From positions 156,426,001 through 156,490,000 of the forward strand of contig OX597815.1 in NCBI GenBank assembly GCA_951406725.2: DNA of 64,000 nt, written 5' to 3'. The position numbers and the translations under genes are program-made. The notes beneath the pieces are model-generated. The model did no database searches, was not told the origin of the DNA, and saw nothing but the letters and a program-made list of their open reading frames with translations. Of the stretch, positions 12,690 to 64,000 are shown piece by piece (positions within the stretch are counted from its first letter, which is position 1; every line of letters starts with the position of its first letter). The DNA comes from Octopus vulgaris (lineage: Eukaryota).

Positions 12690-12852
12690 TTTATTTTCTC
12701 TCCTTGTTTCTTTCTGTGTTCCTTTCTGTTGAAGAGCGTAGGCTCGAAACATGAAAGACTTTTTCACTTCCCGAGCGTTATTCTAATACATCTGTTTGTT
12801 GTCTACACTTCCTGTCTTCGTCTTTTGCATTTTTTTTTGTGAATTCTCCCTA
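12690..12852 (+). mobile_element. Short repeat with a degenerate minimal hammerhead motif (second copy at 39873-40030)
   Basis: CTTT-CTGTTGA-a-GAGC-gtag-GCTC-GAAA-catg-AAAG at 12722-12757. The core has mismatches. Confidence 0.5.
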
Positions 12853-13244
12853 TATACATATGTGTGTATATATATATATATATATATATATATATATATA
12901 TATATATATGTGTATGTATGTATGTATGTATACACATACACACGCTCCATCCCTTATATATGTGTGTGTGTGTGTAGATATAGACAATTATGCAGGTAAA
13001 CAAATTAGATATATTAAATACAACAGTTTGGGTATGAAATACAAAATATGTACATATTTATACGTGCAAAATGAGAGAAAGCAATACCCTGTGAAGACAT
13101 CAGAGCCTAAGTTTGAATCTTTTGACCTCTATTGTGTCTTCTATACGGAGAATCAATGGATATTATGAGTTAATTATATATATATATATATATATATATA
13201 TATATATATATATATATATATATATATATATATATATATATATA

Positions 13245-13645
13245 TAGTTTATATATAGAGGGCATTATTATACATACATGCCACACGCTAAGAAGGACAA
13301 AATTAGTCATTTCTACCAAAAATTTTACTAATCCCACCGAATGCAATATATGTAATATATATATTACCGGATGTAATATATGTAAACTCACCCATGTGCT
13401 TCGTTGATGTTGATCAGTTAGCTGCTCGGCTTAGACGAGGTAGGGTCGTTTATTTATGATACATTCAGGCTTGCTGATGAATACAGAGGTATGAAATCAC
13501 AGGTGATACAAGTCTATATTTTTAAATGTCTTACTTTGAAAAATTGCATTCGGTGGGATTAGTAAAATTTTTGGTAGAAATGACTAATTTTGTCCCTCTT
13601 AGCGTGTGGCATGTATGTATAATAATGCCCTCTATATATAAACTA
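13245..13645 (+). mobile_element. Foldback element: about 103-bp inverted repeats (13245-13347 / 13543-13645) around an HHR-containing spacer, next to (TA)n
   Basis: The arms are near-exact reverse complements. Confidence 0.9.
13467..13515 (+). ncRNA. Type I hammerhead ribozyme
   Basis: AGGCTTG-CTGATGA-ATAC(agag)GTAT-GAAA-TCAC(ag)GTGA-TA-CAAGTCT. 7-bp helix I, intact core, AUA cleavage triplet with predicted cut after 13508. Confidence 0.85.
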
Positions 13646-13989
13646 ATATGTTCAATAAGAAAGAATTATTTTCGAAATTTTTTCTCATGAGGTCTTTCAC
13701 GCTATCTACCTGATAATTTCTTGTTAAGTTTTCCTTATTAAGAAGTTGTCCTTAATTGCTAAATTTATATATATATATATATATATATATATATATATAT
13801 ATATATATATATATATATATATATAAGAACATTTCTCGTAAAGTTTTTTTTTCATTCAATAATGCTTTTGTGTGTGTGCGCACGCGTTATGGCACAATAA
13901 ATTATGTGAAGGGAATGGAGACAAGAATACGAATACTGAACAAGTGATGCTGGGGCATAGCCACAGTCCTATTACTGAAGGGTTTAGTC

Positions 13990-14533
13990 CAATGGTTCTT
14001 AACCGGGGTACATATGGCCTCTGAGGGTTCATATAAGATTTTGGGGGCCTCAGAATAGTATTTTAAGGGAGCCTGAAAGAGTTTTATTTTAGGTGTAACT
14101 ATTGGTATGTATTCATTTCTACTCTAGGCATAAGGCCCGATATTTTGGGGGAAGGGGCCAGTCGGTTAGATCGACACCAGTATGCAACTGGTACTTAATT
14201 TATCGACCCCGAAAGCATAAAAGGCAAAGTAGACCTCGGCGAAATTTGAACTCAGAACATAAAGACAGACGAATACCGCTAAGCATTTTCCCCGGCGTTC
14301 TAAGGTTTATGTCAGATCACTGCCGATGTATCGGTATGTATTGGAAGAAACAGCTAGGTTTCTTCCTCTAGCATTTCACATAGTTCAACCTGAACAAGGT
14401 AATGTGAGAAAAACAAAAGAGGAATTTTGAAAGAAGTTTGTATTGAATGGTTATTTTCTGGGCATGGGGTCCACTAGAATAAAATAATAATCAAAGGGGA
14501 CCATAGATAAAAACAAATGGTTGAGAAACCCTG
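13990..14533. mobile_element. hAT-type MITE with a nested SINE
   Basis: TIR-like ends CAATGGTTCTTAACC / GGTTGAGAAACCCTG, flanked by 8-bp near-TSD GTTTAGTC / GTTTACTC. Confidence 0.7.
14112..14325 (-). mobile_element. tRNA-derived SINE with a Meta-domain-like core (family C)
   Basis: Minus strand GAGTTCAAATT..CTTTGCCTTT.ATGCTTTCGGGGTCGATAAATTAAGTACC. Plus-strand copy at 56578-56752. Confidence 0.7.
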
Positions 14534-15071
14534 GTTTACTCGAACAAATGAACTACAGTACGTAAACTTTTTCAAATCCGGTGCTTATTCTATCCGTCAC
14601 GTTTACTGCATAGCTAAATTACGGGAATGTAAACAAAGTAACAGCGCGGTCAAACAGCGAAACGCACGCACGCACGCTCGCACACGCACATGTACACACA
14701 CACACATACACACACACACACACGTAGGTTGGCGTGTATGCGCATGTGTATATGTAAGCGTATGAGTATGTGTGCATCTGTATAACTCTCTCTTTTCTCT
14801 TCTGTAATATCGAATTTGCTCATCTTTCACCCAAATTATCTGTGCTGCTCCTGATTATTCACTAAATATAACCGCTTCATCCAAAGGAAACACTCGTATT
14901 ACTTAAATTCTCTGTCTGAAGAACTTCCTTACATGTCTCACTAACATGTGAAACTGTAATTCTAATTCCTCTTAGCAAATGAAATATGTATAATTGTGAA
15001 TATATGATACCAATAAATTTTCCAACTTCCTGTTTTATATATGTGCATATATATACATATATATAGAAAAG

Positions 15072-15460
15072 AAATCTCTGAGCGAGGTATAAACAGTAGC
15101 TGCATGATATCGTGAAGGATATTTGCCACTTAAATGTGGCTAACCCTTAAGGGTGGATGCTACTGTAGCTTGTAGCCCCAGGAGGACACCTCCTCCAGCT
15201 GGCTATTGACACACTTTGTGCCCTATCAGTATTTGCAAAGGGAAGTCATCCTTCCAATCTCCAGCCTGACAGGATACACACGGACCCGGGATTCTGATTA
15301 TTAACCCGTCATCAGCGTATGACAACCACCAGTTGGCGATGTGAAGTGGTTCCAAATGCAGATGTATATATCCTTTTTCTAGTGATGAAAAACCACTGAT
15401 CTCGAAAACGTGGAAACAAGCAAAAATAAATCTCTGAGCGAGGTACAAGCAGTAGCTGGA
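15072..15460 (-). mobile_element. HHR-bearing non-coding element: about 356-bp unit plus about 33-bp terminal direct repeat (same family as 60506-60874)
   Basis: AAATCTCTGAGCGAGGTA occurs at 15072 and 15428. Minus-strand HHR at about 15278-15320 has GAAA changed to GAAT. Confidence 0.75.
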
Positions 15461-61860: not shown

Positions 61861-62310
61861 TTATTGCTTATTTAGCTTGGGTTCGAATTTATCAATAAAA
61901 TTCTTTTCTCTGATTTTCCTCTCGATTTCACTTGGGCTGTGTAATTTGTAGAATGGAAATATTATATATATTTTCCGACCACATGTTGCTAGGTGGTTAC
62001 TCAAAGGTATCTGACGGACCTCTGGGTCTCTAATCTGTTGCCGGTGTACACGTGAGCGTTCTAATAGTGCGTTTCCCGTCTGACCTACATATATTTCTTC
62101 ACAATTTGGGCATTTGATGCAGTAAATTAAATTTCTGCTTTTGCAGTTCATATTCGCGTTTGTGAATATTTTCCCGGTTTTTGTGTTTATATATTGACCG
62201 GTATGTATGAATTGGCATGTGCCACATCGGCTATCATTGCATTTAGATACCGTGAATGTTTGGTCTTTGTTGCTGAGGTCAAATTTTGCCTTTGTTAGTA
62301 ATGTTTTCAA
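61861..62310 (-). CDS. PLE GIY-YIG endonuclease domain ORF (left arm, transposon-derived, 5'-truncated)
   Basis: KCNDSRCGTC..NLIYCIKCPNCEEIYVGQTG..R..H. A 1-nt insertion upstream shortens it relative to the right arm. Confidence 0.6.
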   Translation of the reverse strand: MKTLLTKAKFDLSNKDQTFTVSKCNDSRCGTCQFIHTGQYINTKTGKIFTNANMNCKSRNLIYCIKCPNCEEIYVGQTGNALLERSRVHRQQIRDPEVRQIPLSNHLATCGRKIYIIFPFYKLHSPSEIERKIREKNFIDKFEPKLNKQ

Positions 62311-62446
62311 GTTTTTTAGGCTGTCTTTTACTAAGCACCATAGCTCGATCCTTGATTATGTCTTTTAATTCATTACTTTGGGCAATGATTGGTAGGTTTG
62401 CTTTGCCCAAAGTAATGAATTAAAAGACATAATCAAGGATCGAGCT

Positions 62447-62926
62447 ATGGTGCTTAGTAAAAGACAGCCTAAAAACTTGAAAACATTACTAACAAAGGCA
62501 AAATTTGACCTCAGCAACAAAGACCAAACATTCACGGTATCTAAATGCAATGATAGCCGATGTGGCACATGCCAATTCATACATACCGGTCAATATATAA
62601 ACACAAAAACCGGGAAAATATTCACAAACGCGAATATGAACTGCAAAAGCAGAAATTTAATTTACTGCATCAAATGCCCAAATTGTGAAGAAATATATGT
62701 AGGTCAGACGGGAAACGCACTATTAGAACGCTCACGTGTACACCGGCAACAGATTAGAGACCCAGAGGTCCGTCAGATACCTTTGAGTAACCACCTAGCA
62801 ACATGTGGTCGGAAAATATATATAATATTTCCATTCTACAAATTACACAGCCCAAGTGAAATCGAGAGGAAAATCAGAGAAAAGAATTTTATTGATAAAT
62901 TCGAACCCAAGCTAAATAAGCAATAA
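62447..62926 (+). CDS. PLE GIY-YIG endonuclease domain ORF (right arm, 159 aa, transposon-derived, 5'-truncated)
   Basis: Open frame from an ATG to the native stop, with the same motifs as 20537-21121. Expression is unknown. Confidence 0.65.
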   Translation: MVLSKRQPKNLKTLLTKAKFDLSNKDQTFTVSKCNDSRCGTCQFIHTGQYINTKTGKIFTNANMNCKSRNLIYCIKCPNCEEIYVGQTGNALLERSRVHRQQIRDPEVRQIPLSNHLATCGRKIYIIFPFYKLHSPSEIERKIREKNFIDKFEPKLNKQ

Positions 62927-63420
62927 TAATAATACTTAGAGGTATTACTTCCACTGCTACGACCATGACCACTAACAACAACAACAATACTAAAGGTGAT
63001 CAAGACGAAGATAGCAGGAAAATTATCTTATTTAGGGTTAAAAGTTCTATTGCCACCACCATCACCACTAGCAACAATAATTAAGGTGCTGACAATGATG
63101 ATGATGACAATTGAAATATAAAAATATAAAAATCTCTCACAAAGGATATTTACAACATTTCTAAAAATAACCCAACAATTGCTGCTTCGGCCAGGGTCAA
63201 GATACAGGACTCTTGACCTGTCCAACAAAGCGTGATGCCTAAACCAATCAGCTCAACCAACCAATCAGCTTAAGTAATTGAGTGATACTACACACTGATT
63301 GGTCAGAATACAGTTTGCAAAACCTAGCACTCTGGAGCCTACCCAGCTGTATTTATAGCACAGAATCACTCATCTTGCTACAGTCAAAAATTGTGAAGCA
63401 TGACTGTCAACACTACTACA

Positions 63421-63465
63421 TGAACCCGAAGATTGCAGAATTCAATGCATGAAAGTACTAGTTCA
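63421..63465 (+). ncRNA. pLTR hammerhead with a core mutation (CCGAAGA)
   Basis: TGAAC-CCGAAGA-tTGCA...TGCAt-GAAA-GTAC-TA-GTTCA. The U4-to-C change probably impairs activity. Confidence 0.7.
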
Positions 63466-64000
63466 ATCAGAATGAATATTTAACATTCTACTATTTCATT
63501 TTATTTTATTCAATTATAATATATTATCTTATAATATATCATTATAAGATTGTAAATAAAACGTGAAAATCAGACAAGGTTGGAATTCTTTTTATTATAT
63601 ATATATATATATATATATATATATGTGTGTGTGTGTGTGTGTGTGTATATAGTTAATCCAAACATGAAAACACAAAGAGAAAACACAACGCGAGGACGTG
63701 GAACAAGTATAGTGTTATTGGACGGTCAGGAAAGGAAAGAAAGAAGGAGAATTTAATGTTTGGAGCGGAGCACTTGGTCAGAAACATTGGATAAGGAAAG
63801 ATCCAAGCAAGGGATCCGTTAAGTTGCGGGAAATAAGCAAATCAATAACAGTTATCCAGCGGTGTTGGGTAGACAAACACAGACACAAAGTGACACACGT
63901 ACGAAGGTATATACGGGCTTCCACGCAGTTCCACTCACAGGGCACTGCTCTACTCGAGGCTATCGTAGAAGACACTTTCCCGATGTTCCACTAAATAAGA

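Follow-up and report, generated by a model that had tools for sequence, protein, structure and literature searches.

Why does one 64-kb stretch of the Octopus vulgaris genome hold so many hammerhead ribozyme motifs, and why is their helix III nearly always self-complementary? The window analysed here, meaning the whole stretch (contig OX597815.1, positions 156426001-156490000), belongs to a 2.8-Gb genome of 227 contigs, which we searched as well. The answer that we favour, and hold with good confidence, is that these are minimal type I hammerheads, two families of which form the 3′ ends of Penelope-like elements (PLEs) and the others of which are likely derivatives, and that cutting, predicted only in pairs, would depend on a partner set by helix I and helix III together.

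Hammerhead motifs in the window and the genome

We used a type I descriptor with an exact core (the CUGANGA and GAAA boxes, the A15.1-U16.1 pair and a UH site) and at least 7 bp in helices I and II together, in which the palindrome was not required. It found 13 matches in the window, 12 of which have a helix III of at least 2 bp with at most two unpaired nucleotides, against a mean of 0.25 and a maximum of 3 in 60 local dinucleotide shuffles, where one of 15 matches was palindromic. The density is thus not similar to that of shuffled sequence, the comparison that an earlier note on this window had proposed as a check. Both the matches and the predicted folds have the type I layout, with helices I, II and III and the open end at helix I. 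All 21 hammerhead sites named in that note were located, displaced by a few bases at most. Twelve satisfy the descriptor (13474, 15694, 18909, 19135, 20050, 22791, 32054, 58644, 59150, 59656, 60162 and 60714), two carry a U4C core (46609 and 63426), and seven are decayed or variant and fail it. The starting descriptor overlooked motifs mismatched at 10.1-11.1.

Grouping the repeats of the window by self-BLAST gave about 10 families, which upholds the diversity first noted and revises its number from 8-9. The motifs at 12722, 39905 and 63753 had been taken for relatives of the one at 46579. This holds for 63753, and the other two make up a sister family whose core is A6U; in self-BLAST, 12722 pairs with 39905 and 46579 with 63753, separately, while looser clustering merges both. 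A perfect palindrome is the family form of helix III in 8 of the 10 families, as had been claimed, and the remaining two have a 2-nt purine centre (AG or GA) that is present in relatives too. In keeping with the guess that CAATCG stands for CGATCG, a stretch of 34 bp matches copies with ACGATCGT (E 7.5e-7).

Could these be chance motifs in AT-rich repetitive DNA? Rfam is silent: it gives no match anywhere in the window at the gathering score, and at E ≤ 10 over positions 12000-24000 it returns no hammerhead family, only microRNA-like noise, likely because short dimer-type hammerheads fall outside its models. Many singleton matches also appear once one core mismatch is allowed. Against this stand the fixed position of the motifs within repeat families, the U3-A8 covariation of the core and the counts beyond the window. 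In 1.2 Mb of sampled blocks, a relaxed descriptor found 75 motifs and 2 in the reversed sequence. Genome-wide, a two-box pattern with short helix II matched 229,334 times, against 64,366 for its reversed-pattern control; the corresponding figures are 22,196 and 2,226 for the ACGU class, 14,937 and 1,172 for 8-nt helix III frames with short helix II, and 38,146 and 1,166 for those with long helix II. Because the shuffle, reversed-pattern and reversed-sequence controls are all far lower, chance is refuted, and we assign it practically no weight.

The sampled blocks lie at round coordinates and are not strictly random, two of them flanking the window and one coming from a region with listed pattern matches; extrapolated from them, the genome holds about 170,000 such motifs. 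Per 64 kb, the sample (1.2 Mb elsewhere) predicts 4.0 copies in 3.2 clusters, and the window contains 14 copies, grouped into 8 clusters. The window is therefore about three times richer than the sample, yet is part of a genome-wide pattern and no island.

Several families seen beyond the window deserve mention. The commonest ACGU family (helix II GGCUGG...CAGCC; e.g. C1:1017070-1017113) makes up about half of the first 100 ACGU matches listed, and has no descriptor match in the window. U3-A8 families with ACCGGU, ACGCGU or AAUU as helix III gave 14 hits, in blocks C3, C6, C7, C8, C9, C10 and C16. Cluster F7 (blocks C9 and C11) has a helix III of 4 bp with an 8-nt loop, ACAG-UUCUAGUC-CUGU; it is a monomer-type hammerhead, and a loopless helix III is therefore not universal among the families. 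A 969-bp tandem with a 12-nt palindrome occurs in block C8 (47137-54000) and block C10 (14725; clusters F0 and F2), with a second conserved motif, starting CUGCCGA or CUGCUGA, about 110 nt upstream of each hammerhead.

Palindromic helix III and the predicted dimer

With only the outer AC....GU held fixed, the central four nucleotides of helix III pair with themselves in 53 of 60 loci, 42 of them by Watson-Crick pairing (chance, 15% and 7%); the loci are related copies, and the count overstates their independence. This speaks for palindromes that are kept under constraint. Lineages swap the helix III word, yet stay self-complementary.

The longer segments might instead be ordinary monomer hairpins of 2-4 bp with a tetraloop, in which the palindromic centre is incidental. 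Segments of 8-12 nt do geometrically allow 2-4 bp around a 4-nt loop (ΔG +2.9 to -0.2 kcal/mol), and efficient cleavage is reported for retrozyme hammerheads of invertebrates that have stems of this kind (PMC7229834). A hairpin does not require its loop to pair, however, as the central tetramers do, and ACGU forms no hairpin. Moreover, helix III duplexes between molecules were computed at -1.7 to -17.5 kcal/mol and the alternative hairpins at +5.6 to -0.2, which makes the duplexes much the more stable form. We regard the hairpin explanation as improbable.

How, then, would two motifs meet? Unconstrained minimum free energy folding of two adjacent units gave an exact double hammerhead in both tandems folded (506 bp and 969 bp), with helix I and helix III predicted to form between the units. 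In monomers, the predicted probability of the A15.1-U16.1 pair was at most 0.02 in 13 of 13. Upon cofolding, the homodimer core reached a probability of at least 0.3 in 5 of 13, and none of 156 ordered heterodimer pairs reached 0.05.

Is the palindrome a family code?

The earlier note had suggested that family-specific palindromes act as a dimerisation code, by which only like RNAs activate each other. In its selected form, palindromes would diversify so that co-active families or subfamilies avoid mutual activation or sequestration. Consistent with this, 36 families have 30 different modal helix III words, no heterodimer is predicted, and a single lineage changes its self-complementary palindrome while the 3′ arm of helix I stays the same (ACCCGGGU, ACUCGAGU and ACUGCAGU; also ACGAUGCAUCGU versus ACUAUGCAUAGU), although some apparent double changes (ACGAUCGU to ACAAUUGU) are explicable as plain CpG decay. 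These 36 families were kept from 118 clusters of a one-core-mismatch search, which yields mostly chance singletons; the 82 clusters without an exact or U4C palindromic member were dropped.

The sharing of palindromes speaks against a selected code. With strict palindromes, 5 pairs share a word among 23 block-sampled families (null 2.4 or 5.7) and 11 pairs among all 29 families (null 4.2 or 9.8), so that sharing is not below chance, with the caveat that 23-29 families give low power and would accommodate modest avoidance. This test took the place of a first cross-compatibility test, whose result (31/630 versus 3.8-6.3) had been inflated because it included loci picked by pattern and wobble forms. 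Unrelated families have ACGU, ACGAUCGU, ACACGUGU and ACCAUGGU in common. By eye, ACGU stands in at least six helix II/flank contexts among the first 100 matches listed, very abundant families included, and ACGAUCGU in at least five among the matches listed. Since unrelated families share words and one lineage has several, a family-specific code made of the palindrome is not supported.

What else could distinguish the families? In the 11 sharing pairs, helix I across families has 0-3 bp, compared with 3-7 bp within a family, and this divergence alone gives orthogonality; overall, cross-family helix I stands at 0.65 against a shuffled null of 0.71±0.05. Because helix I is also swapped in the double hammerhead, like-with-like pairing is still predicted. 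The expectation that only like RNAs activate each other thus survives as a prediction, and what loses support is the palindrome alone as its cause, the predicted choice coming from helix I and helix III together. Like-with-like pairing is likely spelled by both helices in the predicted folds, with no need, and no sign, of selection for orthogonality; family specificity looks like a by-product of divergence, and what was called a “code” is better seen as a specificity that families have incidentally, through an interface of two helices. We consider selection for a code quite unlikely.

Penelope-like elements and other carriers

The AGUACU family is tied directly to a PLE. The open reading frame (ORF) at 20537-22601 has matches to RVT_1 (E 0.0019, below the Pfam cut-off) and GIY-YIG (E 3.7e-6), its pieces share 70-98% identity with an intact frame of 775 aa elsewhere in the genome, and AGUACU motifs flank it, one sense and one inverted. 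The intact relatives are numerous and near-identical (150 of 10,178 candidates scored); they confirm the order of reverse transcriptase (RT) then GIY-YIG, with RVT_1 just under the Pfam cut-off and GIY-YIG above it, and some of them are 4.27-kb head-to-tail tandems with the motif after every ORF. Tandem or inverted terminal copies, a trait of endonuclease-bearing (EN+) PLEs, are found both in the window and in these relatives. The linker between RT and endonuclease follows CX4CX2C (CNDSRCGTC in P0001), and by its sequence it fits Neptune/Nematis as described in PMC8557442.

At 5 of 25 loci of the A6U family (12722/39905), PLE homology lies upstream on the same strand, and the sequence that these loci share extends from the ORF to the motif. 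The earlier reading as PLE-type minimal hammerheads is therefore borne out for these two families. Of the supposed radiation of non-autonomous elements, the genome-wide radiation stands; the elements are not all non-autonomous, since at least two window families are the 3′ ends of ORF-bearing PLEs. The families without an ORF link are likely of PLE origin as well, judging from their inverted-copy structure and (TA)n flanks; inverted end copies occur in several other window families. A microsatellite lies within 500 bp downstream at 16 of the 19 sites checked, a weak sign because the genome is so repetitive.

The 506-bp tandem lies between (TA)n tracts; it comprises about 3.7 units, which are more than 99% identical, and has a short inverted copy on its 5′ side. 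The unit has at least 1203 candidates in the genome, frequently with an inverted first copy. Every unit of this non-coding tandem bears a hammerhead, in which it is like a retrozyme of the kind without long terminal repeats (non-LTR). When 58951-59456 was compared with contigs of runs X1, X13, X16 and X17, those from runs that carry the labels organism C and organism D also contained the unit, with its “goes back 506” joint. At the centre of the palindrome (59197), a 1-nt insertion is present in X1, X16, X17 and block C7 copies. Runs guessed to be RNA have an excess of A>G, at 11 and 22 places versus 4 and 3, for which editing is a possible cause.

A second intact PLE family, of 781 aa, has at its end a hammerhead with a U3-A8 core and ACAUGU. 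It had been read as lacking a hammerhead, a reading rejected upon finding this motif. Its young copies (L206 1405-6200 and related loci) have an upstream ORF and tandem copies, and their 3′ region carries repeated GATTGG/TGACGTC blocks and a hammerhead with a weak, A/U-only helix I.

Core variants

The 12722/39905 family has the core CUGU-N-GA. Genome-wide, the non-A6 pattern has 19,733 exact matches and none in the control, and among 100 matches listed, 98 have U6 and two C6. We aligned 25 copies, anchored on helix II and G12-A14, about half of which came up as best hits of a single query. All 25 have U at position 6; positions 3, 4, 5 and 9 are invariant and position 8 nearly so; position 7 is G in 11, A in 9 and U in 5, and position 17 is U in 12, A in 11, C in one and G in one. 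Large variation in the unanchored columns is thus limited to 7 and 17, the two free positions of the hammerhead, which argues for continued hammerhead-like constraint despite A6U. U4C is present in all 11 motifs found for the 775-aa PLE family, so that a young, intact family carries it, and, in the 46579 family, in 15 of the 16 best copies that were parsed. Most sampled motifs retain the exact core.

What do these changes mean for cutting? A6C has low activity and U4C lowered activity in vitro (PMC3088659), and the A6U change would likely weaken cutting. This opens another explanation, in which the main reason for keeping the motif is that it gives the PLE machinery a handle, through RNA-RNA pairing or protein binding, and cleavage is weak, dependent on protein or dispensable. 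Three successful families have core changes tied to lower activity (A6U once, U4C twice), and in the anole the PLE hammerhead cleaves only with protein and is unneeded for in vitro insertion, the PLE protein itself being predicted to dimerise (PMC11167929). The conservation speaks otherwise: invariant positions 3, 4, 5 and 9 and the rarity of G17 (1/25) in the A6U family are the pattern expected of catalytic constraint, C3-G8 covaries to U3-A8 in the 781-aa PLE family, and the exact core prevails. On balance, we hold a mere handle to be rather unlikely. We give somewhat more weight, though well short of even odds, to the possibility that A6U works as a natural core when dimerisation or the PLE protein rescues it, or else that the dimer with helices I and III swapped between strands was itself selected, as a family-specific RNA pairing handle for retrotransposition.

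Proposed mechanism

Returning to paired hammerheads at PLE 3′ ends, we propose the following course. The element would be copied from its 3′ end, a mode taken from the literature, which would account for the structure seen here: insertions are mostly short pieces that retain the hammerhead, many of them with an inverted copy and next to (TA)n. In a tandem transcript, two neighbouring motifs would then swap strands: the palindromes would make one common helix III, and each 5′ arm of helix I would pair with the 3′ arm of the partner. Two active sites would arise in the predicted fold and could excise unit-length RNA, and a single copy, unable to close helix III, would stay uncut. Because both helices are swapped, diverged families could not complete each other; the null tests suggest that this would be a by-product of drift under the constraint to stay self-complementary. 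In families with U4C or A6U, cleavage would likely be weak or protein-assisted.

Several points weigh against this course, beginning with the hairpin geometry and the low power of the sharing test given above. Eight of 13 homodimers, including all three with ACGU, lack a predicted core, and the fold model ignores Mg2+ and tertiary contacts and had no canonical monomer hammerhead as a control. Most copies are solo or inverted and so are without a sense partner in cis, and the case for cutting draws on sequence and predicted folds. As for the carriers, PLE homology was found for the 46579 family at one locus of 20, some 2.1 kb upstream (E 3.6e-4), a second PLE match lies outside the stretch that the family shares, and 7 of the 10 window families have no link to a PLE ORF in the loci examined. 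In other animals, 8 of 9 Xenopus dimers showed no cleavage (bioRxiv 10.64898/2026.07.22.740005), and mutants of the anole PLE hammerhead had no effect on in vitro insertion (PMC11167929).

The role of hammerheads in PLEs is open, given poor in vitro cleavage (PMC4209133) and dispensability in one reconstituted insertion system (PMC11167929). The genome offers natural matched pairs, with the same palindrome and different helix I or the same helix I and different palindromes, and its young intact PLEs with U4C or U3-A8 and its huge A6U family make the question of cleavage versus pairing testable. Should A6U be a working core or the dimer a selected handle, more than 100,000 dimer-type hammerheads would form a natural library here, in which one PLE family reached tens of thousands of copies with a U at the supposedly invariant A6 while still under hammerhead-like constraint.

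Features of the window

Table. Coordinates of the hammerheads and their carriers in the window
Feature	Position	Strand	Details
A6U-core ACGU family copy	12721..12759	+	here ACAU, A6U, G17
Hammerhead	13468..13514	+	exact core; helix III AUCAC-AG-GUGAU
Decayed copy, ACCCGGGU family	15277..15321	-	A15.1U
Left arm of fold-back pair	15559..15644	-	exact core, ACAGCUGU, mispaired helix II
Right arm of fold-back pair (15466-15867)	15688..15773	+	exact core, ACAGUUGU
Hammerhead, left arm of fold-back insertion (18683-18963 / 19081-19357)	18839..18916	-	helix III ACC-GA-GGU
Hammerhead, right arm of fold-back insertion 18683-19357	19128..19205	+	descriptor match
Hammerhead, AGUACU	20011..20055	-	about 490 bp downstream of PLE ORF, same strand
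Broken Penelope-like ORF, several frames	20537..22601	-	RT and C-terminal GIY-YIG
Hammerhead, AGUACU	22786..22830	+	in inverted 3′-end copy (22606-22851), 5′ side of PLE
Hammerhead on solo 3′-end fragment, AGUACU PLE family	32015..32059	-	descriptor match
Decayed copy, A6U family	39904..39942	+	self-BLAST
Minimal hammerhead	46578..46614	-	U4C core, helix III ACGU; at least 3067 genome candidates
Decayed long-helix-II hammerhead	46904..46996	-	C3U, broken palindrome ACAAUCGU; nearest relatives ACGAUCGU
Decayed long-helix-II hammerhead	57722..57807	-	A15.1G; relatives ACAUAUGU
Non-coding 506-bp tandem	58529..60481	+	hammerheads 58639-58702, 59145-59208, 59651-59714, 60157-60220; helix III ACUAAUUAGU
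Hammerhead, ACCCGGGU family	60676..60720	-	exact core; helix III ACCCGGGU; relatives with ACUCGAGU
Fold-back of two GIY-YIG 3′ halves, AGUACU PLE	61493..63488	.	797-bp inverted arms, 100%
Hammerhead, AGUACU	63421..63465	+	U4C core, young-subfamily form
Decayed copy, 46578 family	63750..63786	-	self-BLAST

The element around the first exact-core hammerhead has a 90-bp inverted end copy (13258-13347 versus 13543-13632), and its helix III is identical in relative L156. In the 15559/15688 family, ACAGCUGU is the family form, found in 14 of 19 motifs (L287-L305), with at least 664 genome candidates. Relatives of the motif at 57723 were also found carrying ACATATGT. A further hammerhead-like sequence at 14908-15004 (+) has CUGAAGA, a long insert, GAAAUAUGUA and an unpaired helix I; its helix II end resembles two long-helix-II genome matches, and it is possibly a decayed eleventh family.

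Other repeats accompany these elements. A 554-bp direct repeat (35982-36535 and 38072-38618, 96% identical) contains no hammerhead that we could find, and a fold-back element of about 300 bp (41079-41385, 84% self-complementary) has no descriptor match. Related open-frame fragments at 10119-10764, 17421-18178 and 27003-27569 (PHLEYCCPLWSP) have no Pfam match and resemble the 3′ ends of long interspersed nuclear elements of the CR1/L2 type. Frame fragments at 33165-33621, without a Pfam match in the piece scanned, resemble the N-terminus of a Tc1/mariner transposase. Dispersed repeats of about 150-190 bp, resembling short interspersed nuclear elements, lie beside microsatellites at 8181-8601, 19496-19689, 33815-34161 and 47389-47764.

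Comparison with known systems

Lunse and co-workers reportedly described minimal type I PLE hammerheads in 2017 (as cited in PMC6765202). In kind, the motifs of this genome are already known: they are PLE-type dimer hammerheads and their derivatives. The palindromic helix III and the dimer model have been published (PMC4209133, PMC3088659, PMC6765202). As in the minimal PLE hammerheads of PMC4209133, there are terminal repeats, a short helix I, an extra nucleotide between 9 and 10.1, a palindromic 15.2-16.2 segment, many variable families per genome and a U3-A8 variant, and the copies are mostly solo or on opposite strands, 100-700 bp apart. Unlike there, our estimate is about 170,000 motifs rather than about 2,000-9,000 per genome, many families have perfect palindromes of 8-12 nt and helix II inserts of 40-80 nt, and A6U and U4C cores, which the accessible text of that paper does not describe, reach high copy numbers.

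The AGUACU PLE, compared by description, resembles the EN+ PLEs Neptune and Nematis (Craig et al. 2021, PMC8557442) in its RT followed by a C-terminal GIY-YIG, its CX2-5CxxC linker, an upstream ORF in another frame, 5′ truncation, tandems, an inverted 5′ copy, a bias of insertion toward microsatellites and a hammerhead near the 3′ end. The 506-bp repeat resembles the non-LTR retrozymes (Cervera & de la Pena 2020, PMC7229834), which are non-coding, dispersed, AT-rich tandems with one type I hammerhead per unit, and have been proposed as PLE derivatives (PMC7229834; Li et al. bioRxiv 10.64898/2026.07.22.740005); it differs in its PLE-style inverted 5′ copy and its 10-nt palindrome.

Perreault et al. 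2011 (PMC3088659) found palindromic helix III across several animals, with a dimer stem of up to 10 bp, and natural U3-A8, A6C and U4C core variants, as here. However, A6C was a single phage sequence there, and the A6U family here numbers tens of thousands; the word A6U is absent from the main text of that paper. Our literature search, which largely left subscription papers outside, found no report of hammerheads in cephalopods, of A6U hammerheads or of specificity in heterodimers. In the axolotl, cleavage is dimer-dependent and 126,247 motifs belong to two families (bioRxiv 10.64898/2026.07.22.740005), whereas dozens of families appear in our small sample. What rises above the routine in this genome is its scale, its long perfect palindromes and its high-copy A6U and U4C cores.

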